Below are positions 6,088 to 45,878 of a stretch of 64,000 nt of DNA, one piece after another. The notes under the pieces are model-generated. The model did not search any database and was not told the DNA's origin. It saw only the letters and a list, made by a program, of their open reading frames with translations. Origin of the DNA: Thiotrichaceae bacterium UBA4486 (GTDB taxonomy: Bacteria > Pseudomonadota > Gammaproteobacteria > Eutrophobiales > Eutrophobiaceae). Each line of letters starts with the position of its first letter. Positions within the stretch are counted from its first letter, which is position 1. Made by a program: the position numbers and the translations under genes. Location: assembly GCA_002389045.1 (NCBI GenBank), contig DGNS01000009.1, forward strand, positions 381,975 through 445,974, in the 5' to 3' direction.

Positions 6088-7016
6088 CTACCGGAAGGCC
6101 TTGACATTGATCGTTTCATCCGTGTTTTTCAGCGCCCCAACGTGACCGGCCAGGAAAGCAGCCGAGTGATCAGCACCCATGTATTTATTCAGCATGCTGC
6201 GCCGGGTATTGCGCAGATCCACGAAGATCAATCCATCAACGACGTCGGCGAACTCCGGGTCGATGTTGAATCCGACAAAACGTCCGCCGAGTTTCAGGTA
6301 CTGCCTGACCAGTATGGGCACACCCTTGTTGTCCTTTTCCAGCGCTGAAACAATATCGGATACGAGGTTCAGATCGTCAATGGCGTCCAGGTCCTGCTTG
6401 TGCCAGGCCTGTTGTCCACCGCTGCGCCAGGGTCGGCGGGCCTTGACGTAAGGCGACAGCGTGGGCTCGAAATTGTGCAAACTCAGACAATCCACCAGCA
6501 GGTGCCTTGAGACAAGACCGTACTCCTTGCTGATACTGACCGGTCCGAACAGTACAGGACAGGTTGGATGTTTCGCCACGAATACACCGATACCCCGCCA
6601 GAGCAGGTTCAGTGCGAGGAAACTTTTTTGATACTCACAGCGAACGAAGGAACGGCCGACTTCGATAGCCCGATCCAGCAGCGGCAGGATCCCACGCTTG
6701 AATTTGAATAACGAGCAGGTATACAGCCCCTTGCGACCATAATGCTGCAGGATCTCGTGAACAAGGCCGAGACGGTAGGCGCCCACCAGTTCCTGTTGCT
6801 CACAGTTCCATAAAAACAGTGGTGATAGTATGAATCAAACAAATCCAGATCCATACTTCTGCCCGTATCCTCACCGGCCTGCCGGAACGTCAACTCGCGC
6901 AGGCGGCCGATCTCCTGCAGGACCATGGGAGTATCGGCAGTGCGGGCGAGATAAACCTCATATTCGCCGGTTTCGATCAGACGCTGTGGTGGCGACAGTA
7001 CCCCGATTTCAGCCAT
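6088..7016 (-). pseudogene. OlsB-like (COG3176, GNAT-type) N-acyltransferase, reading frame split in two (-1 frameshift at an A5/T5 run near 6813-6817)
   Basis: N-terminal 55 aa (YEVYLARTADTP...LRELTFRQAGEDTG, DLDLFD) are in ORF 6609-7016. The remainder (VGAYRL...LYTCSLFKFKRG...LELGRSFVR...YQKS...LLWRGI) is in ORF 6088-6786, in a different frame. The join maps to a homopolymer run. Could instead be a sequencing error, making it an intact ~300 aa CDS. Confidence 0.55.
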
Positions 7017-8305: not shown

Positions 8306-8765
8306 CTAGCGGTAATTGACTATTTGTTGATCCATCCTGCCGGGGGTACCCAGTCCGGCCAGAAACCGCATCGCGTTTTCCTGCCCCATGTATTTATCCA
8401 GAACCGTGCGGTACGTCTTGCGCAGGTCAACAAAGATCAAGCCATCCACGACCTCACTGAAATCGGGATCAACGTTAAAAGCGACAAAACGTCCTCTCAG
8501 TTTCAGGTACTGTTTCACCAGTACCGGGACACCCTTGTTGTCTTTCTCCAGTTCCTGCTTCAGCCAGGCAACCTGACCATGACGTTTGTATGGATTACGT
8601 GGCCTGACCAGACAGGATAATGAGGATTCAAAGTTGTTTATGCTCAGGCAGTCCACCAGCAAATGTCGTGAAACAGTCTCATAGTCCTTGCTGATGCTGA
8701 CCGGACCAAACAGGATGGGACAGGTTCCGTTACCGTGCCTGCCAATGCGCCATAAAGTGCAAACG
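8306..8765 (-). pseudogene. 5'-truncated remnant of a second OlsB-like N-acyltransferase paralog (C-terminal ~150 aa only)
   Basis: Translation ...CPILFGPVSISKDYETVSRHLLVDCLSINNFE...VPVLVKQYLKLRGRFVAFNVDPDFSEVVDGLIFVDL aligns with the C-terminal half of the 6088-7016 gene (about 75% nt identity). The frame hits a stop at ~8763 just where the GT4 gene ends, so there is no N-terminal half. Confidence 0.55.
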
Positions 8766-8773
8766 GGGTTTGA

Positions 8774-9817
8774 TCAGCCGGTTGCACAGGCGTCACTGAT
8801 CGATTGCGGATCCGGGTGAGGATTCACAGGGGCGAGATGCTGCAGGAAGCACTCAGCGGAAGCGCGCCAGCAAAACGTTCTTGCATAGACCACGCAATCA
8901 TCGCGATTGAGTTGCAATGCGCCTTCCACCGCCGCCTTCAGGTCTTCGTCGAGTATGCCGGTCACGCCCTGTTTGACGACATCAATGGGCCCGGTGACCG
9001 GGTAGGCCGCCACCGGCAGTCCGCAGGCCATGGCTTCGAGCAGAACGATACCAAAGGTATCGGTACGGCTCGGAAACACAAATACATCGCAGGCTGCGAG
9101 CATGGCAGCAAGTTCTTCACCGAATTTAAAGCCGGTGAAAATCACATCCGGGTAGGCGGACTTCAATTTGTCGAGGTCCGGGCCATCACCGATCACCAGC
9201 CGGGTACCGGGCAATTCGAGATCCAGGAATGCCTCGATGTTTTTTTCCACGGCGACGCGACCCAGGTACACGGAGATCGGGCGTTTGTGATCGAAAATAT
9301 TCCGGGGTCCCGGTTTGAACAATGCGGCATCGACGCCACGTGACCAGACGATCACATTTTCAAAACCACGGTTAATCAGTGTGCCACGCATATACTGACT
9401 CGGCACCATGGTTCTCACCGCGGGCTGATGAAACCTGCGCACCATGGCGTAGCCCAGAGACAATGGCAACGGAACCCGGGCGCGGAAGTATTCGGGAAAC
9501 TGCGTGTGGTAGGAGGTGGTAAACGGCAGCTGGTTTTGTAAACAGTATTTACGCGCCGCCTGACCCAGCGGGCCTTCCGTGGCGACATGAATAGCGTCGG
9601 GGTTGATGCATTCAAGGCGCGCGCGTACGCCCCGGTACGGCATGACAGCCAGGCGTATCGATGGATAGGTCGGGCAGGGAATGGTGTGAAATTCGCCGGG
9701 ATGGATGAATTGAACATCATGGCCAAGTAATTGCAATTCACGCTGCATGTATTCGTAGGTGCGGACAACACCATTGACCTGGGGTCGCCAGGCGTCGGTA
9801 ACCACAACAATCTTCAT
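8774..9817 (-). CDS. glycosyltransferase family 4 (GT-B, 'group 1')
   Basis: MKIVVVTDAWRPQVNGV N-terminus, EGPLG and GRVAVEKNIE (E-x7-E) motifs; start overlaps the upstream gene's stop (ATGA). Confidence 0.8.
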   Translation of the reverse strand: MKIVVVTDAWRPQVNGVVRTYEYMQRELQLLGHDVQFIHPGEFHTIPCPTYPSIRLAVMPYRGVRARLECINPDAIHVATEGPLGQAARKYCLQNQLPFTTSYHTQFPEYFRARVPLPLSLGYAMVRRFHQPAVRTMVPSQYMRGTLINRGFENVIVWSRGVDAALFKPGPRNIFDHKRPISVYLGRVAVEKNIEAFLDLELPGTRLVIGDGPDLDKLKSAYPDVIFTGFKFGEELAAMLAACDVFVFPSRTDTFGIVLLEAMACGLPVAAYPVTGPIDVVKQGVTGILDEDLKAAVEGALQLNRDDCVVYARTFCWRASAECFLQHLAPVNPHPDPQSISDACATG

Positions 9818-10614
9818 GCCACGAGATCGTGCTGCTTGATGGAATGCTGTTTATCGGTCCAGTGCAACAGTTCCATGCTGCCCTGGTGTGTTTCCACCAG
9901 CGCCGTGCAACTCTCCACCCAGTCGCCGCAGTTGCAATACACCATATTATCGAGGCGTGTTATCTCGGCGCGATGGATATGACCGGATATAACTCCATCA
10001 ACACCGTGGGTCATGGCTTCATGAACCAGTGCGGCCTCAAAATTACTGATGTACTTTACCGCTTCCTTGACCTGGTGTTTCAGCATATTGGACAGCGACC
10101 AGTAGGACAGCCCGCAGCGGCGGCGAATGACATTTACCCAGGTATTGGCTTTCAGCAGAACCTCGTACAATGCACTGCCCAGCAGCGCCAGCATTTTCGA
10201 ATTGGTAACCACCCCGTCAAACTGGTCGCCGTGGATGACCAGGAAACGCTTGCCGCAGCGGGTTTCGTGTATGGCTTCATCGACGAGGGTAAGATTACCG
10301 AAACTCATACCGGAAAAATCCCTGAGCAGTTCATCGTGGTTTCCGGTAACGTAAATGATCCGGGTGCCGTGCTTGGCCTTGCCGAGCAGTGTGCGAATGA
10401 CATCGTTATGCGCCTGCGGCCAGTGCAGTTTGCGTTTCATCTGCCAGATATCGATGATGTCACCGACAAGGTACAGGTAATCACAGCGGGTGGAACGCAG
10501 AAAATCCAGCAGATAACCGGCGCTGCATCCGGGAAAACCCAGGTGCACATCAGAGATGAATATGGAACGGTAGTAGGTGGGCTCGATCCTGTGAATGTTC
10601 TTCATAAGATCCAC
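9814..10614 (-). CDS. LpxH-family metallophosphoesterase (UDP-2,3-diacylglucosamine diphosphatase-like)
   Basis: ISDVHLG, GDIIDIW, GNHDE, GHIH calcineurin-like motifs in LpxH order; translationally coupled to the GT4 gene. Confidence 0.7.
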   Translation of the reverse strand: MDLMKNIHRIEPTYYRSIFISDVHLGFPGCSAGYLLDFLRSTRCDYLYLVGDIIDIWQMKRKLHWPQAHNDVIRTLLGKAKHGTRIIYVTGNHDELLRDFSGMSFGNLTLVDEAIHETRCGKRFLVIHGDQFDGVVTNSKMLALLGSALYEVLLKANTWVNVIRRRCGLSYWSLSNMLKHQVKEAVKYISNFEAALVHEAMTHGVDGVISGHIHRAEITRLDNMVYCNCGDWVESCTALVETHQGSMELLHWTDKQHSIKQHDLVA

Positions 10615-21441: not shown

Positions 21442-22348
21442 ATCACAACCGATGATTGACAAACGTTTTCTGGTACACGGTTTTTTGCCGGCCATTGCCG
21501 CAGCGTGCAGTTTTGCCGTGATGGCCGGGCTCGTCAAAATGGCCTCGGCGGAAGTTCCGCTGCCGGTGCTGGTGTTTCTGCGCAACCTGGCCGGCCTGGC
21601 CATCATCCTGCCCGTTGTGCTGCCACGGGGCCGCCAGTACCTGAAAACAAAAAAGCTGAAAATGCATATGTTTCGAAGCCTGATCAGCCTGTGCGCCATA
21701 ACCAGCTTTTTTTATGCCCTCGGTCATATCGGTCTGGCGGAAGCCTCTCTGCTCAATGCCACGTCACCGTTATTTATCGGTATCCTGGCGACGTTAATTC
21801 TTGGTGAATCCCTGAATCGCGCCCTGGTGTTGTCACTTCTGACCGGTTTTATCGGCGTCACGCTGATCCTGAAACCGGGTACCGAGCTGTTCACGCTTGC
21901 CGCCCTGGCCGGACTGGCTTCCGGTTTTTTTATAGCCTGTGCAAAAATTATTATCCGTTACATGGCCAGCACCGAACCTGTTTTACGCACAGTCTTTTAT
22001 TTCAGCCTGCTCACGACCATTTACTCCGCTGTGCCCCTGCTCTGGCTGTGGCAGACACCATCACCCCGGACGTTCATCATCATGGTACTGGCCGGTATGA
22101 CCGCCACGCTGGGTCAGACTTTCCTGACCTACGCGTATACCCATAACCGGGCCGTAAAGGTTGCGCCGTTTACCTATGTAACCGTACTCATCGCCGCCCT
22201 GATCGGCTGGTGGATATGGAAGGAAATTCCCGATGCCGGCTCCAGCATCGGCGCCCTGCTGGTGATTACGGCGTGCCTTGTCATTACCCTGGAAGGCAAA
22301 CCGCTCATTGCCTGGAGGAAACAACCGCCACCGGCGGCAAGAGATTGA
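21442..22348 (+). CDS. EamA/DMT-family transporter
   Basis: 10-TM duplicated EamA architecture; start at ATG 21442 (MIDKRF), divergent from the DksA-like gene. Confidence 0.75.
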
Positions 22349-22393
22349 CAATCGTCCTGCGCTACCGACGATTCAATGCTGCACCGGCAAGAT

Positions 22394-22503
22394 TTGTGGT
22401 GAACGTTTTCTCGCCGTAGTCGCCAGATACATGATGTTCAGGAATGATTGATGACCATGACAGCCGCTGACCGGGCCGTATTTCCATACCGCATTTTTAT
22501 GCT
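22394..22503 (+). repeat. copy A of a ~110-nt repeated intergenic element (second copy at 35334-35445, ~86% identical, same orientation)
   Basis: shared core ttttctcgccgtRgtcgccagRtRcatKatgttcaggaa..attgatgacc..gacagccRctgaYcggg..gtatttcYaYaccgcatttttatgct. Confidence 0.8.
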
Positions 22504-22557
22504 GACAATCCATATATAATAGGCAGTTCATGAGCACGCAGACACAGAACCCGGCCA

Positions 22558-23382
22558 ATGAAAGTAGATTTACACACGCATAGCACACGATCGGACGGCA
22601 GTCTCGACCCGCCCGGCCTGGTCATGCTGGCGCAACAGCGGCGTATTGATATGTTATCCATCACCGATCACGATACCATCGCCGCCTACCGGGATATTGA
22701 TGTCCCCAAGCTATCCGGAATCAGGATTATCGCCGGTATCGAGTTCTCAACCACATGGCGTGGCGTCGGCATCCATATCCTCGGACTCAATATTGATCTT
22801 GATAACCGGGAACTGCAACGCGGTGTTGATCAACAACTGGCCGCCCGTGAACAACGCGCCGTTGAAATCGCCCGCCGCCTGCAAAAGAAACTCGATATTG
22901 ACGACCCGCTGCCTGCGGTCAGGGCCATTGCCGGTCACGGCAATATCGGGCGACCGCATTTTGCCCGCCACCTGGTCAACAACGAGATCACCAAAAGCAT
23001 GGATGTCGCGTTTCATAAATACCTGGGGTCGGGGAAGATAGGTGATGTCCGGGAATCCTGGGCGGATCTGGCCAGTGTTACCCGGTGGATCACGGTCGCC
23101 AACGGAACGGCTGTTCTCGCCCATCCACTCAAGTACAAGCTGACGCGCACGCGCCTGCTGGAATTGCTGGATGATTTTACCGGAGCAGGCGGCAGCGGCA
23201 TGGAAGTGGTTAACGGTCAGCAGAACGAGGAGCAAACCCTGAAACTGGCAAAGATCTGCAACGCCCGCGGCTTGCTTGCTTCCTGCGGTTCGGATTTTCA
23301 TAATATGGAATCAGGCTGGTCCGCCATGGGATCGTATTCGAAGCTGCCGGATTCGTGCACGCCTGTCTGGAGTTGCTGGTAA
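22558..23382 (+). CDS. trpH: PHP-domain phosphoesterase (TrpH/YciV, RNase AM family)
   Basis: MKVDLHTHSTRSDGSL...ITDHDT PHP motifs, 274 aa. Confidence 0.85.
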   Translation: MKVDLHTHSTRSDGSLDPPGLVMLAQQRRIDMLSITDHDTIAAYRDIDVPKLSGIRIIAGIEFSTTWRGVGIHILGLNIDLDNRELQRGVDQQLAAREQRAVEIARRLQKKLDIDDPLPAVRAIAGHGNIGRPHFARHLVNNEITKSMDVAFHKYLGSGKIGDVRESWADLASVTRWITVANGTAVLAHPLKYKLTRTRLLELLDDFTGAGGSGMEVVNGQQNEEQTLKLAKICNARGLLASCGSDFHNMESGWSAMGSYSKLPDSCTPVWSCW

Positions 23383-27083: not shown

Positions 27084-30000
27084 TTGACTACACGCATGCC
27101 CACCGACCATGGTACGGCAGCAGCCGCCGATGACAGCCGTTTTCGAAGCCTGATCGAAAACAGTAACGATGTCATTTCCCTCGTCGATCGTACCGGCACG
27201 ATCCTCTACAGTTCGCCCTCGGTATACGGGGTTCTCGGTTACGACCCCGATCAACGCCCCGGCCAAAGCATTTTCGAAAACATTCATCCGGAGGATCGGC
27301 CGAGACTGGAAGAAGTCTTCAAACGCTTGCTCAGCGAACCAGGACAGTCCATTCATGCAATCACCCGCTACCAGCACCGCGACGGTCACTGGCTATGGAT
27401 GGAAGGCAGCGCTAAAAACCTGCTCGAAGATCCCGATGTCAGGGCGATTGTCGTCAACTACCGGGACATTACCGAACGCAAGCAAGCCGAGGATAAACTG
27501 GCGGCAAACGAGCAGCGGCTGAGCGTCCTCATGGAGAACCTGCCGGGAATGGTTTACCGCTGCAGGAATGACCCGGACTGGTCCATGGAATTCATGAGTT
27601 CCGGTTGTGTTGATCTCACCGGTTACAGTGCGGATGACTTTCTGTCCGGTCGCATTCGCTATCACGATATCATCCATCCGGATGACCGGGATCGGGTCTG
27701 GAACGAGGTTCAGGATGCGCTGGCCGGCAAGACGCGATTCAGGATTGAGTACCGTATTCGCACGGCAACCGGTGAGGAAAAACAGGTATGGGAACAGGGC
27801 TGTGGAATTTGGGAAAGCAATGCGGATGTACTCGCGCTTGAAGGCTTCATTACCGATGTAACAGAACGCAGGAAAATAGAAGACGAGCTCCGGACCAAAA
27901 CTCGTGATCTGAACGAGCGGGTCAAGGAAATCACCTGCATCAATATCATCAGCGCCATATTTGATGAACCGGGCAGCAGCCTTGATGAACAGATTGAAAG
28001 GGTTGTTAACACCATTCCGGATGCAATGCAGTATGCGGAGATTTCCTGTGCGAGGATCGGTCTTGATGATAAAACTTTCTCTACAACCAACTTCGATCAC
28101 CCGGTTGCAACTCTATCCCGGGATATCGTTGTAAATAAAACTGCAATCGGAACAATCGACATCGGTTATCTCGAACAACGTCCGGGAACGGATACGGATC
28201 CTTTCCTTGACGAGGAAAAAGATCTGGTCAGTATCATTGCCAGCAAACTGGCGCAGCATCTTGAGAACAAGCGTATCGAGCAGGAACTGGTTGAATCAGA
28301 GCGTTTCGCCAACGCCACTATCAACGGGCTTTCCGCCCACATAGCCATCATTGACAGGACCGGCACTATCCTGCATATCAACCGGGCCTGGAAACAGTTC
28401 GCCGAGAATAATTCCACGGAAATCCGTGCCCTGTGTACCGGGGCTAATTATCTCGATGTTTGCGACAGGGCCTCCAGGCTTGCCGGCGATACCATTGCAG
28501 CACAATTTGCCGATTGCATCCGTTCGGTGCTGGCCGGCGAGATCTCCGAATTCGTTCTTGAGTATCCCTGTCATTCGCCCGAAGAACAACGCTGGTTCCA
28601 GGGCCGGATCACGCCGTTCCCCGGCGAGGGCCCGGCAAAAGCCATTGTTGCCCATGAGAACATCACCGATCGCAAACTCAGTGAGGCCGCACTGGGCGCC
28701 AGCGAGGAGCGATTACGGCTGGCGCTGGACGCAGCCCACATGGGCACGTTCGACTGGGACATCCGGAAAAATCACATCACCTGGTCACGCTGGCACGAAG
28801 AACTCTGGGGATATGAATCCGGTGAGTTTGACGGTACCTATGAGGCCTTTGAACAGCGCATACATCCGGATGATCTTCCCGGGATCAACGCGGATATCGA
28901 ACGCTGCATAGACACGCATGTGCCTTTTATTCGTGAATTCCGGGTTGTCTGGCCGGACGACAGTATACACTGGATCCAGGCCCGGGGTGAATTCACTTAC
29001 CCCGCAGATGATTCCGCCGACCGTATGCGCGGTGTGGTCATTGAAATCACCGAACGAAAACAAACCGAGCAGGCCCTGCGCCGTGAACACGATTTTTCCA
29101 ATGCGCTGCTGAACAGTCTTCCCGGTATTGTCTATTGCTTTGACGAAAACCTGAATTTCCTGCGTTGGAACAGAAATTTTGAAAACATCAGTGGTTACAC
29201 CGGTGAAGAGATCGCCAACAGCCGGCCTCTGGACTTTTTCTCAGGCGACGACCGGGAACTGATCCGGCGGTGTATCGGGGAAGTATTCGAAAAGGGTCAG
29301 GCCGAGACTGAAGCCGGCTTCGTAAGCCAAGATGGCAAGGTTATACCCTACTATTTTACCGGCATGCACGCCGATATCGGCGGGAAAACCTGCCTCGTGG
29401 CCGTCGGCATTGATATTACCGCTATCAGGCAAAAGGATGAGGCCCTAAGGATCAGTGAAGCCCAGCTTTCCAACGCGCTGGAAATCGCCCGGGCCGGATA
29501 TTGGGAATACGATGTCGCCACGGATCGGTTTACATTCAACGATCATTTCTATGCCATATTCCGCACCTCCGCCGAGCGTGAGGGCGGTTACAGCATGTCT
29601 CCGGCCGAATACGCCGGCAGGTTTGTACACCCGGACGACAGGGATGTAGTCGACAGGGAAGTCAAAGCCGCCCTGGAAACCACGGATCCGGATTTCACCC
29701 GTGAACTTGAACACCGGGCCATCTTCGCCGACGGCGAAACCGGTTACATTGCCGTACGGGTATTCATAAAGAAGGATGACTCCGGGAAAACCGTCAAAAC
29801 CTACGGCATCAACCAGGACATCACGCAACGCAAGGAAGCGGAGCAGCGCCTGACCCTGCTAAATTTCGCCCTTAACCATGCGAGTGAGGCCAGCTACCTG
29901 ATGGACAGGCAGGGCCGCTTCCTGGATGTCAACAGGGAAGCCTGCCGTGCACTGGGTTATACACGGGATGAGTTACTGGCAATGAAGGTCTTTGACATTG

Positions 30001-32414
30001 ACCCGGGTCTGACAATTGAAGCATGGAACAGGTACTGGAAGACGATCAAGAAGTCAGGCACCACGACCCTTGAGGCAAATCACTGGCGCAAGGACGGCAG
30101 CTCATTCCCGGTGGAAATTACCGCCAATTATTTCAGGTTTGAAGGCAAGGAGTACGATCTGGCGCTGGCCCGCGATATCACCGAACGGAAAATAGCCGAA
30201 TCCGCATTGAAAGAAAATGAAATGCGTTTCAGGAATGTAGCCAGAGCGACATCGGATATTGTCTGGGACTGGAATCTGAACACCGATTCAGTCTGGTGGA
30301 ATGATGGCATACATACCCAGTTCGGATACCAGCCCGGCGAACTGGAAAAAGACAGGTCATCGTGGAGCCATCGCATACATCCTGACGACAGGGCACGGGT
30401 GATTGAAAGCATTCACAAGGTAATCGAGGCCGGGGAGGAAAACTGGTCGGACGAATACCGCTTCAGACATAAAAACGGCAACTATGTCTATGTCAGTGAT
30501 CGCGGTTACGTGGTGCGTAATGACAAGGGCAGGGCCGTGCGCATGGTCGGCGGCATGACCGATATCAGCGAGCGTAAGGCAGCGGAAGCCAAAATCATGC
30601 GGCTGAACCGCGTCTACAGGATGCTGAGTGAAATCAACTCGTTGATCGTGCATGTCCAGGACCGCCAACAATTGTTCGAGGAGGCCTGCCGTATTGCCGT
30701 CGAGGATGGCGGCTTTTTGCTGGCCTGGGTCGGCGGTGTTGACAGTGAAACCGGCCAGGTCACCCCTCTCGCTTACAGCGGCAAACACGACTACCTGGAA
30801 AACGTCCATATCACCATGGACCCGGACAAACCCGGCGGCAGGGGACCCACGGCCATCGCCCTGCGCAACGCGAAGCCATCGATTTGTAACGACATCAAAT
30901 CCGACCCGAGCATGGCCCCCTGGCGGCAACGGGCGCTTGCACGGGGCTTCGTATCCTGCGCCGCCATACCGCTCAGCGAAGCGGGCAAGGTGATTGGCGC
31001 CATCAACCTGTACGCGGGCGAAACCGGATTTTTTGACGATGAAGAGATGAAGCTGCTTAATGAACTTGCAACTGATGTTGCCTATGCCTGTGAGAATATT
31101 TCCCGGAAGGAAAAACTTGAATATATCGCCTCTTTTGATCAACTCACCGGCCTCGCCAACCGCCACCTGTTCAATGAACATCTGAATTCCGTACTTGGAC
31201 GGGCCAGAAAAAACAACAAAAAAGTCGCCCTGCTGGTTTGCGATCTGAAGAAATTCCGTCATATAAATAACCTGTACGGCCGCAAGGCCGGAGACCGGAT
31301 CATCCAGGAAACGGCACGCCGGTTGAAAAAACAGACCTCCGATCCGGTCAATATCGGCCGGCTTACCAACGATTACTTCGCCATGATCCTGCACGATGTG
31401 CGCGATTCCACCGGCATCGCCTACATGTTCGAAAATATCCTGTTCCCGTCAATGAATGCGCCATTCCGGATTGACGACCTTGAAATACAGGTCGGTTTCC
31501 GGGGCGGCATAGCCGTGTATCCGACCGATGGCAGCGATGCTGAAGAACTCTACAGGAGTGCAGAAGCCGCGTTGAAGCGCGCCAAAAATTCCGGTGAAGA
31601 ATACGTTTTCTATCAACCGGAGATGACCAACCGTATCGCCGAAACCCTGAAGCTGGAAAACAAGTTGCGCAGCGCCCTGGACAAGGATCAATTTGTCCTG
31701 CACTACCAGCCGAAAATCAACACGGTGACCCGGAATATATGCGGCCTTGAAGCCCTGATCCGCTGGAATGATCCGGAGACCGGGCTGGTGCCCCCGGGAG
31801 ATTTCATTCCGATCCTGGAGGAGACCGGGCTCATCCTCGATGTCGGCCTCTGGGCGCTGCGCAGGGCGGCAAGCGATTACCGCCGCTGGACGGCGGAGTT
31901 TGCAGCCGTACCCACGATCGCCGTCAACGTCTCGGCTGCGCAGTTGCATCAGGCGGATTTTGCCCGGCAAATACTCAAGGCCGTGGAACACGACGGTGAA
32001 ACCACGCCGGTAGACCTGGAAATCACCGAAAGCATGATCATGGTGAACATCGAGCAGAATATCGAAAAACTCGGTGTTCTGCGCCAGGCGGGGATCGGCA
32101 TTGACATCGATGATTTCGGCACCGGGTATTCATCCCTGAGCTACATCGCCAGTCTGCCGATCGATGCGCTGAAAATCGACCGCTCGTTTATCACCAACAT
32201 GACCACGCAGCCACAAAGCCTGACCATTGTCACCAGTATCATCAGCCTTGCGCATTCCCTGGATCTGAAAGTGGTCGCCGAGGGCGTCGAAAACGAGGAA
32301 CAGGCAAAATACCTGCGTTTGCTGAATTGCGATGAAATGCAGGGCTTTTTATTCAGTAAACCGCTACCGGCGGAGGAAATCACCGCACTTTTACAGTCCG
32401 GCGTTATAAAATAA
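27084..32414 (+). CDS. 1776-aa multi-PAS/PAC-GAF sensor protein with degenerate GGDEF and intact EAL domain (probable c-di-GMP phosphodiesterase)
   Basis: at least 8 PAS/PAC units (repeating ...HPDDR...W...G...DITERK). GAF domain. GGDEF position reads GRLTNDYFAMIL (no GG[DE]EF). EAL domain has EALIRW, DDFGTGYSSLSYI, KIDRSFI, EGVENEEQ. Start is TTG 27084 or ATG 27096. Confidence 0.85.
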   Translation: MTTRMPTDHGTAAAADDSRFRSLIENSNDVISLVDRTGTILYSSPSVYGVLGYDPDQRPGQSIFENIHPEDRPRLEEVFKRLLSEPGQSIHAITRYQHRDGHWLWMEGSAKNLLEDPDVRAIVVNYRDITERKQAEDKLAANEQRLSVLMENLPGMVYRCRNDPDWSMEFMSSGCVDLTGYSADDFLSGRIRYHDIIHPDDRDRVWNEVQDALAGKTRFRIEYRIRTATGEEKQVWEQGCGIWESNADVLALEGFITDVTERRKIEDELRTKTRDLNERVKEITCINIISAIFDEPGSSLDEQIERVVNTIPDAMQYAEISCARIGLDDKTFSTTNFDHPVATLSRDIVVNKTAIGTIDIGYLEQRPGTDTDPFLDEEKDLVSIIASKLAQHLENKRIEQELVESERFANATINGLSAHIAIIDRTGTILHINRAWKQFAENNSTEIRALCTGANYLDVCDRASRLAGDTIAAQFADCIRSVLAGEISEFVLEYPCHSPEEQRWFQGRITPFPGEGPAKAIVAHENITDRKLSEAALGASEERLRLALDAAHMGTFDWDIRKNHITWSRWHEELWGYESGEFDGTYEAFEQRIHPDDLPGINADIERCIDTHVPFIREFRVVWPDDSIHWIQARGEFTYPADDSADRMRGVVIEITERKQTEQALRREHDFSNALLNSLPGIVYCFDENLNFLRWNRNFENISGYTGEEIANSRPLDFFSGDDRELIRRCIGEVFEKGQAETEAGFVSQDGKVIPYYFTGMHADIGGKTCLVAVGIDITAIRQKDEALRISEAQLSNALEIARAGYWEYDVATDRFTFNDHFYAIFRTSAEREGGYSMSPAEYAGRFVHPDDRDVVDREVKAALETTDPDFTRELEHRAIFADGETGYIAVRVFIKKDDSGKTVKTYGINQDITQRKEAEQRLTLLNFALNHASEASYLMDRQGRFLDVNREACRALGYTRDELLAMKVFDIDPGLTIEAWNRYWKTIKKSGTTTLEANHWRKDGSSFPVEITANYFRFEGKEYDLALARDITERKIAESALKENEMRFRNVARATSDIVWDWNLNTDSVWWNDGIHTQFGYQPGELEKDRSSWSHRIHPDDRARVIESIHKVIEAGEENWSDEYRFRHKNGNYVYVSDRGYVVRNDKGRAVRMVGGMTDISERKAAEAKIMRLNRVYRMLSEINSLIVHVQDRQQLFEEACRIAVEDGGFLLAWVGGVDSETGQVTPLAYSGKHDYLENVHITMDPDKPGGRGPTAIALRNAKPSICNDIKSDPSMAPWRQRALARGFVSCAAIPLSEAGKVIGAINLYAGETGFFDDEEMKLLNELATDVAYACENISRKEKLEYIASFDQLTGLANRHLFNEHLNSVLGRARKNNKKVALLVCDLKKFRHINNLYGRKAGDRIIQETARRLKKQTSDPVNIGRLTNDYFAMILHDVRDSTGIAYMFENILFPSMNAPFRIDDLEIQVGFRGGIAVYPTDGSDAEELYRSAEAALKRAKNSGEEYVFYQPEMTNRIAETLKLENKLRSALDKDQFVLHYQPKINTVTRNICGLEALIRWNDPETGLVPPGDFIPILEETGLILDVGLWALRRAASDYRRWTAEFAAVPTIAVNVSAAQLHQADFARQILKAVEHDGETTPVDLEITESMIMVNIEQNIEKLGVLRQAGIGIDIDDFGTGYSSLSYIASLPIDALKIDRSFITNMTTQPQSLTIVTSIISLAHSLDLKVVAEGVENEEQAKYLRLLNCDEMQGFLFSKPLPAEEITALLQSGVIK

Positions 32415-34375: not shown

Positions 34376-34990
34376 ATGAACAAACCTTTTTCGCAGTCCT
34401 GTGAAAACAACAAGAAGCCCATACTTTCGGTCATCGAGAGCCTCTGGACAGGTTCCGCCGAAATTCTTGAAATCGGCAGCGGCACCGGGCAACACGCGGT
34501 TTACTTTGCCGCGCACCTGCCGCACCTGCACTGGCAACCCTCGGATCGTGGCGTGATGATTGAGGGCATGCACATGTGGTTTGACGAGGCCGGCCTGTCC
34601 AATATCCGACCACCACAAATTCTGGACGTTGAACTGGATCCGTGGCCGGTCACCCGCTTTGACGGCGTTTTTACCGCCAACACGCTGCATATCATGAGCT
34701 GGAATCACGTACAGTTATTATTTCACCGTCTCGGCACATATCTGCCGCCGGGCGGCCTGTTTGTTTGTTACGGCCCCTTCAACAGGGGTGGACAATATTC
34801 AAGTGAAAGTAACGCACGGTTTGATCAGTGGCTGAAACGGCAGGACCCGGTCAGTGCCATCCGTGATATCGATGATCTTGAACAACTGGCTGTAAAACAG
34901 GAAATTGAACTCGAATCCAATGTGGACATGCCCGCCAACAACCGCATCCTGGTCTGGAAGAAATCACCGGTTGCAGGGATACAATTCTGA
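34376..34990 (+). CDS. class I SAM-dependent methyltransferase, DUF938 family
   Basis: LEIGSGTGQH SAM motif I, DGVFTANTLHIMSW, characteristic DUF938 length and order. Confidence 0.6.
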   Translation: MNKPFSQSCENNKKPILSVIESLWTGSAEILEIGSGTGQHAVYFAAHLPHLHWQPSDRGVMIEGMHMWFDEAGLSNIRPPQILDVELDPWPVTRFDGVFTANTLHIMSWNHVQLLFHRLGTYLPPGGLFVCYGPFNRGGQYSSESNARFDQWLKRQDPVSAIRDIDDLEQLAVKQEIELESNVDMPANNRILVWKKSPVAGIQF

Positions 34991-35374
34991 CAAAACAGTA
35001 TTGGCCGCAACAACAGCCGGTTTTTGCAGCAATTCCGGATCTTGCCGAATACCCTTGATCACGGTTCTTGCCAGGGTTTCCTCCACGGCATCCGCGGGCA
35101 AACAGACTTCCGGAACATCGTCATCATGATAACAATCACAGGGCGTCACATACCAGTGACACACCATACCCTCCGTGTGTGTAAACCCGGACGCCAGAGC
35201 GGTTTCGCAGGCATCGACCAGACGGGCTCCGTTGATGGAATCCGCCTGAGCCGATGCAAACATCAGATAGAGAATGACAATCCGTGATACGTTGCGGACA
35301 AACACAGTAATTATTTGTGGTTCCTCAGCAAAATCTGTGGGTGGCAGTTTTCTCGCCGTGGTCGCCAGGTGCAT
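34964..35374 (-). CDS. hypothetical Cys-rich protein, possibly secreted; 5' end probably over-called
   Basis: The 38 N-terminal codons are encoded by repeat copy B read in reverse. A plausible signal-like segment VILYLMFASAQA then follows. The true start may be near 35263. Confidence 0.3.
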   Translation of the reverse strand: MHLATTARKLPPTDFAEEPQIITVFVRNVSRIVILYLMFASAQADSINGARLVDACETALASGFTHTEGMVCHWYVTPCDCYHDDDVPEVCLPADAVEETLARTVIKGIRQDPELLQKPAVVAANTVLSELYPCNR

Positions 35375-35445
35375 TATGTTCAGGAAATATTGATGACCGG
35401 GACAGCCACTGATCGGGAAGTATTTCTACACCGCATTTTTATGCT
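35334..35445 (+). repeat. copy B of the ~110-nt repeated element (see 22394-22503)
   Basis: 84 of 98 aligned core positions identical to copy A. Confidence 0.8.
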
Positions 35446-35667
35446 CTCGCCAAGCACGCCATGAACGCCAAGGAAATCATCCACACTATTCATGAAGTCG
35501 GATCCCGTGAGATGGACGAAGAGCAGGCATAGGGTATATGGAATTCGGGATAGCACCATTTCGCCATATTCTACATTCCGTTTCCGTTATTATTTTTCCT
35601 GGCGTGCCTGGCGTCCTGGCGAGAGAAAAAATTCTTTGTCCATACCCACAAATTCCGCTGACGTTCC

Positions 35668-36270
35668 TTATTTGTTGAGGTATCGTTGGTCCCTGAAACT
35701 ATATACCCAGTCAGGACGATAGACAACAAACAGGGTGATCAGGCCCGAGGTCAGAAATGCTTCGGAAAATCCGAACAAAAGAAAGTAAGGCAGGTACTCT
35801 CCGCTGAGCAGCGACCATTTAAAGACGTTAAATACAACCAGCACCAGCGCAATGGCGAGTCCCGTACAGGCATTGGTCAGCCAGGCGCCAAAAAAGGCGG
35901 AACCATATATGTAGATAAAGAAATGTCGCGGTAATTTGTATTCCAGCAGCAGAAAGATGAAACAGGCCACGGTGACCGGCAAAACCGCATTGAGCATGAT
36001 CGCCGTACCGATGTTCATCCAGAGGGCGTCACGAAACAGGGTGACCAGTACGTTCACCAGCGAAAGACCAAGTACACCCATGCGCCAGCCGAACATCAGC
36101 GCCACAAGCATGGCGCCGAAAAGATGAATATTCAGACCGGAATCAAGCGATACACGCAGCATCGAGACCATGGTCAGAAAGAAAATCGCCCACAGCCAGT
36201 GGTTGATTCGGCGAATACTGCAGTGTGTTGATGAACGTAAACTGTTTACAATCAACATCACCAACGACAC
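35668..36270 (-). CDS. polytopic membrane protein (about 6 TM; ECF S-component-like, family not recognised)
   Basis: 200 aa almost entirely hydrophobic helices; GTG 36270 or ATG 36258 start; lies 345 nt downstream of ribB(A) on the same strand. Confidence 0.45.
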   Translation of the reverse strand: MSLVMLIVNSLRSSTHCSIRRINHWLWAIFFLTMVSMLRVSLDSGLNIHLFGAMLVALMFGWRMGVLGLSLVNVLVTLFRDALWMNIGTAIMLNAVLPVTVACFIFLLLEYKLPRHFFIYIYGSAFFGAWLTNACTGLAIALVLVVFNVFKWSLLSGEYLPYFLLFGFSEAFLTSGLITLFVVYRPDWVYSFRDQRYLNK

Positions 36271-36615
36271 GCTGCACAGGATTGTCGTCAGGCTGAACCA
36301 AACGGGAAAATAATGTCCGGTAAAATCCAGGTTATCCTCCGGGATAAATGAACAACCATAATGTCAGGTTAGCCCCGACAGGCAAATCCGGAACCTGTCA
36401 GAACCCGGTAAAATACATACGTTATATTAATAACAGGAAGCAGCGGGTAATTCCAGATACACCATGCCATGCAGAGAGAGATATATATTACCCGTTAGCT
36501 GATACGTATGCCGGTACAGACAAGGTTGTTCGGAACGGAGGTCAATACTACAATTGTGTATCGGGATAATTCCGGTTTCTTGAGAAATGACAGGGGAACT
36601 GCACAGACCTTCCGG

Positions 36616-45594: not shown

Positions 45595-45878
45595 AATTCA
45601 GTACTCCTGTTCAAAATACAACCATATCAATACGCTAATTATGAATTCGTTAATGTGAGGCGCATATATCTATTTGGATATACCTAATCAGAAAGCATGG
45701 ATGATATGTCCGGTAATTTGACATGCATTGACGGCTCCCGGCACCGGATTTTGCCGGATGCATTATGATTTTATGTCGGTATCAGAATCTGCTGACAACC
45801 CGGTAACCATGACAGTTTTTTTACCGGCTCATGAATATGAATAGCTGAAATTACAGATCTCGGATATTTTCATATAAT

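Follow-up and report, generated by a model that had tools for sequence, protein, structure and literature searches.

The two similar intergenic sequences found in the window (the whole stretch of 64,000 nucleotides analysed here) are very probably parts of a decaying family of ISL3-derived miniature inverted-repeat elements (MITEs), that is, of a non-coding mobile element. The free-standing repeat unit of about 110 nt, as it had been described in an earlier note on this DNA, is an artefact of comparing a full copy of the element with a truncated one. The source organism, a gammaproteobacterium, is uncultured and has been seen in metagenome assemblies only.

The similarity of the two copies, here designated A and B, is well beyond chance. 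Positions 22387–22503 and 35328–35445 of the window are 83–86% identical, where approximately no such pair is expected by chance. Ungapped comparison at an offset of 12942 yields 97 identities in 131 positions, compared to at most 45 at neighbouring offsets, and the blastn alignment of the two copies covers 118 nt with 83% identity (E = 1e-29). Mismatches occupy 14 of the 99 positions across the core at 22405–22503, and for one 21-nt block, TTTTCTCGCCGTNGTCGCCAG, the window has exactly two occurrences, compared to 0.01 predicted from shuffles. These values agree with the two intergenic copies of about 110 nt reported in the earlier note, with 84 of 98 positions identical, and a repeat scan of the complete 64 kb found no third copy in the window, as the note had also stated. 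Both copies are intergenic and have the same orientation, 12,942 bp apart. Copy A is located between the stop of an EamA transporter gene at 22348 and the start of trpH, a PHP phosphoesterase gene, at 22558, and ends 55 nt upstream of trpH. Copy B is located between the GTG start of a Rap1a-like gene at 35305 and the stop codon of a gene for a CbiM-like membrane protein at 35668–35670, both on the minus strand.

The true extent of the repeated unit is revealed by a third copy. A scan of metagenome sequences with a pattern derived from the middle block returned one true copy and two chance matches; the window's own copies were not returned. The true copy, in contig MRWG01000085.1 (here L014), is 183 bp long and represents a short form of the element. 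It is located downstream of a ferredoxin gene, in a setting unrelated to the window, and the settings of the three copies (A, B and L014) are mutually unrelated. The homology between the L014 copy and copy B continues past the 3′ limit that the earlier note had assigned to copy B, with a piece of 44–53 nt recurring about 170 nt further on, where it abuts the CbiM-like stop codon. In blastn comparisons 137 nt on the left and 53 nt on the right are common to both, with a gap between positions 137 and 297 of element B. The unit at site B is therefore not the 110-nt sequence originally proposed, as the family homology extends well past it, to the 349-bp element listed in Table 1.

Table 1. Features of the element copies and their surroundings in the window.
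Feature	Position	Strand	Remarks
Copy A, truncated and decayed MITE relic	22387..22503	+	element positions 10-127 only
Lineage-specific segment holding copy A, 176 bp	22360..22535	.	homology to L008 ends at 22359 and restarts at 22536
MITE copy B, long form, full length	35319..35667	+	349 bp; ends given by the limits of L014 homology and the duplications
Left target-site duplication TTATTTGT	35311..35318	.	exact 8-mer abutting the element
Right target-site duplication TTATTTGT	35668..35675	.	holds the TAA stop of the CbiM-like gene (minus strand)
Left terminal inverted repeat GGTTCCTCAGCAAAATCTGTGGGT	35319..35342	+	as at that end of ISL3 elements where the transposase gene stops
Right terminal inverted repeat	35644..35667	+	reverse complement is GGAACGTCAGCGGAATTTGTGGGT; inverted-repeat pair I3
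Segment of element B homologous to copy A	35328..35445	+	'copy B' of the earlier note
Long-form-specific interior	35446..35615	+	missing in the 183-bp L014 copy, present in the L023 locus-C fragment

Element B has the anatomy of a transposed unit. Its ends are directly abutted by an exact 8-bp repeat, for which the chance of occurrence at the ends of the homology is approximately 1.5e-5 per site. The L014 copy has the same two termini as element B; the 8-bp repeat on either side of it is a different one, TTAAAGCT. Element B has imperfect terminal inverted repeats, with 18 of 24 positions matching between left and right, and copy B is, at its 5′ end, complementary to the distal piece beside the CbiM-like stop (pair I3). 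The arms are likewise imperfect and unusually long (about 50–70 nt), and in the predicted fold their pairing gives the element a long imperfect hairpin (z = −2.63). Inverted repeats I1, I2 and I5 delimit the interior that only the long form has. The insertion point is in a 5-nt spacer region between the CbiM-like stop and the Rap1a-like GTG start: after removal of the element and one duplication, the CbiM-like stop sits 5 nt upstream of the Rap1a-like GTG, which indicates that the insertion pushed two adjacent genes 357 bp apart.

The assignment to the ISL3 family is based on transposases that accompany the same termini elsewhere. Viral contigs scanned with the terminal motif gave five matches, three of them at the termini of ISL3-type elements. 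Contig L029 has a 259-aa ORF that matches PF01610 (DDE_Tnp_ISL3) with E = 7e-75 and whose stop codon is overlapped by the motif. Both inverted repeats of an element of about 1.6 kb in L028 are formed by the motif; this element encodes a frameshifted ISL3 transposase, which matches PF01610 with E = 1.5e-40 and includes the ISL3 zinc ribbon. In the IMG/VR contig L032 (positions 898–1230) the motif is found at both ends of an element of about 330 bp that is non-coding and has an 8-bp duplication, GCATCGGT, on its flanks. The first 24 nt of element B match the L029 end at 22 of 24 positions, the L028 end at 21, and the two L032 ends at 21 and 20. Within the repeat, the transposase ORFs of both L028 and L029 end with the codons THRFC-stop; read as its reverse complement, the left end of element B still gives ATHRFC-stop. 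Published ISL3 inverted repeats of 24 bp have a similar CGGAATTT-TGG core (PMC7643977), and the classical direct-repeat length of the family is 8 bp (PMC7643977; PMC12554700). The remaining two matches in the viral scan (L030 and L031) were ruled out as ISL3, as they have no ISL3 features. The L032 element is itself an unrelated high-GC MITE in a viral contig, with ISL3-type termini GGCTCTTCAGCAGAATCTGTGGGT.

The ends of IS26-type elements, which we take to have the form GG-N7-GCAAA, resemble the first 14 nt of the element. IS6 elements also produce 8-bp duplications, and the length of the duplication alone therefore does not fix the family; moreover, two IS6-derived MITEs are on record (PMC7986276). 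One could thus view the element as a MITE of another family with 8-bp duplications (IS6/IS26, IS256, IS1595 or others) rather than ISL3, and IS6/IS26-family MITEs share both the duplication length and the GG start with the element described here. We nevertheless consider such an origin very unlikely. The inverted repeats of IS6 are just 14 bp long (PMC7986276), whereas the similarity of the present termini to ISL3 ends spans 24 nt, and these termini contain the stop region of the ISL3 transposase. The only transposases found beside the terminal motif are ISL3 transposases (PF01610), at 21–22 of 24 matching positions and with THRFC-stop inside the repeat, while the motif scan yielded no IS6 transposase.

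The ISL3-derived element does not encode the means of its own transposition. Neither the 349-bp nor the 183-bp copy has coding capacity for a transposase, and the only trace of one in the element is its last five codons, beyond which tblastn finds nothing. Searches by tblastn with two ISL3 transposases detected no ISL3 transposase, and hence no autonomous partner with these exact termini, in the window or in the loci of the host lineage, from which we conclude that the element is non-autonomous. Among GTDB species-representative genomes, a pattern derived from the 3′ block gave seven matches, all judged to be chance. Searches starting from other parts of the element were similarly unproductive: blastn of the whole element against a plasmid collection returned short chance matches only, a profile of the 46-aa minus-frame ORF matched nothing beyond itself, and a 76-aa ORF of the element compared with 1.84 billion representatives gave one weak match, which we take to be chance.

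Copies without a transposase could also arise if full-length ISL3 insertion sequences had inserted separately at each site and had then been reduced in place by independent internal deletions. This process would leave the same termini and the same 8-bp duplications, and deletion in place does occur, as documented by the L014 short form and by a 53-bp remnant in L023, a locus of the sister lineage. Members of the ISL3 family are roughly 1.3–2.3 kb in size. Independent deletions from an element of 1.3–2.3 kb would not converge on the same junctions, yet independent sites share both the transposase-free interior and the junctions: element B and the L014 copy have in common the left 137 and right 53 nt, while element B and a fragment at L023:303–496 share the join between the interior and the right arm. 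No trace of a transposase past the last five codons was found by tblastn, which likewise argues against reduction in place. Separate reduction of full-length insertions is accordingly improbable in our assessment, and the presence of a common transposase-free interior at independent sites favours the view that the element was mobilised as a MITE. Copies with the common interior at unrelated sites comprise A, B, L014, L023:303–496 and a junction in contig L035 described below, a small total.

Comparisons with related genomes provide some insight into the history of these copies. The next-closest TrpH proteins are 96% identical at the amino acid level and belong to the sister lineage; identity then falls to 67% or less. 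At site B, the sister-lineage locus L023 has the duplication TTATTTGT at the same position, with the element reduced to 53 bp, consisting of 11 bp of its right end and 42 bp of its left end. Because L023 shares the duplication together with a remnant of the element, the insertion at site B predates the split of the two lineages, and the element was later gutted in one of them. A second sister-lineage copy, L023:303–496, is a right-half fragment located between the ETF-alpha and GCHY-1 genes (locus C) and is 79% identical to positions 147–346 of element B. In the window, the spacer between the ETF-alpha and GCHY-1 genes (45748–45873) consists of 126 bp of unrelated sequence with a hairpin-like repeat of its own, CCGGTAAAAAAACTGTCATGGTTACCGG. 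Clean empty sites were not recovered in relatives at site A, site B or locus C: a different segment of 1079 bp is found at A, the 53-bp remnant at B, and locus C differs but not cleanly.

The known copies exhibit several states of decay, including the left part (copy A), the full element (B), the 53-bp remnant (L023, site B), the right part (L023:303–496) and the short form (L014). Since inverted repeats enclose the interior of the long form, the short form appears to be the product of a deletion between the hairpin arms, by which about 160 nt would have been lost.

Other assemblies of the source species contain element B with 100% identity. A different situation is found in L035:3941–5916 (JGI 3300035358, Ga0247264_00440), where a 99.7% identical element is joined to a different flank with radical-SAM/SPASM and TENA/PqqC-like genes. 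The sequence departs at the left terminus of the element, which has the variant GGTCCC in place of GGTTCC, and the element is followed by ATCAATACACTACC at the junction. Two further contigs end inside the element. The L035 junction and the two contigs ending inside the element point to at least one more near-identical copy, and the data fit the presence of at least one such copy elsewhere in the genome. The L035 junction could represent a second locus, a recombinant strain or an assembly chimera, although even a chimera still needs a second similar copy. The interpretation of the repeat as a MITE explains the contig breaks and mis-joins at the element in the source organism.

Copy A is a truncated relic that retains the left third of the element. 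Its left tip is degenerate, and it is without a right arm, a right terminal repeat and a recognisable target duplication; the truncation was plausibly left by an adjacent deletion. The blastn alignment of copy A with the L014 element covers 97 nt with 88.7% identity. In the close relative L008, the lineage-specific segment that holds copy A (Table 1) is replaced by 1079 bp that contain a second EamA gene, overlapping with trpH, and an ORF of 35 aa, and blastn comparisons detected no element at site A in any of the relatives L008–L012. The replaced segment in L008 (positions 8900–9978, between the first EamA gene and trpH) includes a terminator-like hairpin in addition to the 35-aa ORF and the second EamA gene, which encodes 298 aa. 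The more distant relative L012 has no EamA gene at this position.

The two copies share one orientation, are separated by 12,942 bp and bracket a block of genes, which raises the question of whether they are att-like repeats or composite-transposon ends of a 12.9-kb island extending from trpH to the Rap1a-like gene. This is extremely improbable. The relatives keep the gene order over the block in the absence of copy A and with only a remnant of copy B, the genes between the copies are of housekeeping type, and copy B has terminal inverted repeats and an 8-bp duplication of its own, which means that it was inserted as a unit.

A different question is whether the core of the repeat is maintained by selection. 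Comparison of copies A and B yielded no coding signal in any of the six frames, with 2–5 synonymous and 16–19 non-synonymous differing codons. In this respect the observations of the earlier note are accurate: the tiny ORFs MMFRND and MFRKY are both present, and the changes are mostly non-synonymous, in fact in every frame. The note had concluded that selection appears to act on the nucleotide sequence and had listed a small RNA gene, a cis-regulatory leader and a miniature inverted-repeat or REP-type element as candidates. Of these, the last is the one upheld, by the terminal inverted repeats and the 8-bp duplications, while the small RNA and the leader found no support; the common descent of transposon copies accounts for the similarity that had been attributed to selection.

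The alternative of a regulatory small RNA with paralogous genes, or of a 5′ leader acting in cis, kept by selection on RNA sequence or structure, would be consistent with a non-coding sequence that is 83–89% conserved over three copies in two organisms, with the location of copy A 55 nt upstream of trpH, and with that of copy B upstream of the Rap1a-like gene (minus strand). Several results make this quite improbable. The earlier note had proposed a search of Rfam and an analysis of covariation, and both speak against an RNA. No Rfam family matched anywhere in the window at gathering thresholds, and consensus folds of the three copies contained no compensatory pairs (0 of 34 pairs on the plus strand and 0 of 24 on the minus strand, with several pairs broken, in a comparison of n = 3 sequences). 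Single-sequence folding of the 110-nt core on both strands showed no excess stability over shuffles (z from −1.4 to +0.6), and a scan detected neither a sigma-70-like promoter nor an intrinsic terminator in or beside the core. Copies A and B share no orientation relative to their downstream genes. The close relative lacks copy A and has the core deleted from its copy B, and the core is thus dispensable; moreover, transposon anatomy accounts for the similarity without selection. When the Rfam threshold was relaxed to E ≤ 10 around copy A, the sole match was to the archaeal C/D-box sR28 model, with 20 bits against a gathering score of 39. This match was driven by AUGAUG and CUGA motifs, and we rejected it as a sub-threshold chance hit.

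These results lead us to propose that the copies originated by transposition in trans. An ISL3-family DDE transposase made elsewhere would recognise both terminal inverted repeats of the element, and insertion would proceed through staggered cuts 8 bp apart in AT-rich DNA, leaving the 8-bp target duplicated. The copies would subsequently decay by internal and terminal deletions. We infer that the transposase was an ISL3-family enzyme of the host lineage and that shared ancestry, rather than selection for a function, underlies the 83–89% similarity among the copies. Effects on neighbouring genes, such as those of 357 bp of hairpin-forming DNA placed between two genes, are possibly a by-product of the insertion rather than its purpose. 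A role acquired after insertion also appears improbable, although one could speculate that the hairpin insert of about 350 nt serves as an insulator, an attenuator or an RNase target that uncouples the adjacent genes, or that the copy A relic provides a promoter or leader for trpH after the loss of the EamA gene.

The proposed element can be compared with several known systems. ISL3 insertion sequences (ISPst2/CLJ-ISL3, ISAeme19, ISPpu12 and the elements in L028 and L029) resemble element B in having terminal inverted repeats of about 24 bp that start with GG, 8-bp duplications of AT-rich targets, and a terminus that contains the THRFC-stop codons. They differ in that they carry a transposase gene, as in the L028 element of about 1.6 kb, whereas the present element has none, nor is its interior related to transposase coding sequence. 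In the archaeon Methanosarcina acetivorans, one ISL3-derived MITE is on record (PMC3852290); this 179-bp MITE, related to ISMac21, likewise has ISL3-type ends and a short non-coding interior and is non-autonomous. The L032 MITE (about 330 bp) shares the terminal motif and is flanked by an 8-bp duplication. Both of these MITEs differ from the present element in their interior, and the present element is distinguished by its gammaproteobacterial host, its long arms, and the existence of long and short forms. The enterobacterial ERIC/IRU and REP/BIME sequences (about 35 to about 127 bp) are also intergenic, non-coding and capable of forming hairpins, but they are without transposase-type termini or 8-bp duplications, and we saw no sequence similarity between them and the element.

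The main value of these findings is in annotation, as they account for an otherwise puzzling conserved non-coding repeat. They also add a gammaproteobacterial example to the few ISL3-derived MITEs that we found described, and illustrate decay by deletion between hairpin arms and by terminal truncation. In other respects the element amounts to ordinary selfish-DNA debris, and no new biological question arises from it.

Two annotated coding sequences overlap with the element. A 46-aa 'hypothetical protein' (P0169; 22373–22513, minus strand) is called entirely within copy A, and the Rap1a-like protein is called with 136 aa (34964–35374, minus strand), starting from an ATG inside element B, while in the sister lineage the Rap1a-like protein has 113 aa and starts from a GTG equivalent to that at 35305. 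The 46-aa protein and the 23-aa N-terminal extension of the Rap1a-like protein are annotation artefacts of the element. The Rap1a-family (type VI immunity-like) protein proper (34964–35305, minus strand) has a signal peptide, and its gene is immediately downstream of the CbiM-like gene (35668–36330, minus strand), whose homologs are 221 aa long, which makes the TTG at 36330 the probable true start of the latter gene. The pairing of the Rap1a-like and CbiM-like genes is kept in the sister lineage, and no effector gene was seen nearby.

Elsewhere in the window, a second direct repeat of 167 nt with 77% identity (6176–6342 and 8385–8551) flanks a gene for a PEP-CTERM protein. One of its copies is located in a GNAT-like (Acetyltransf_5) minus-strand ORF of 232 aa and the other in what appears to be a truncated paralog of 118 aa. 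The segment between the two MITE copies includes a gene (27084–32414, plus strand) for a very large signalling protein of 1772–1776 aa with GGDEF and EAL domains, one GAF domain and many PAS domains; its counterpart in the sister lineage (1637–1641 aa) is shorter by about 135 aa.
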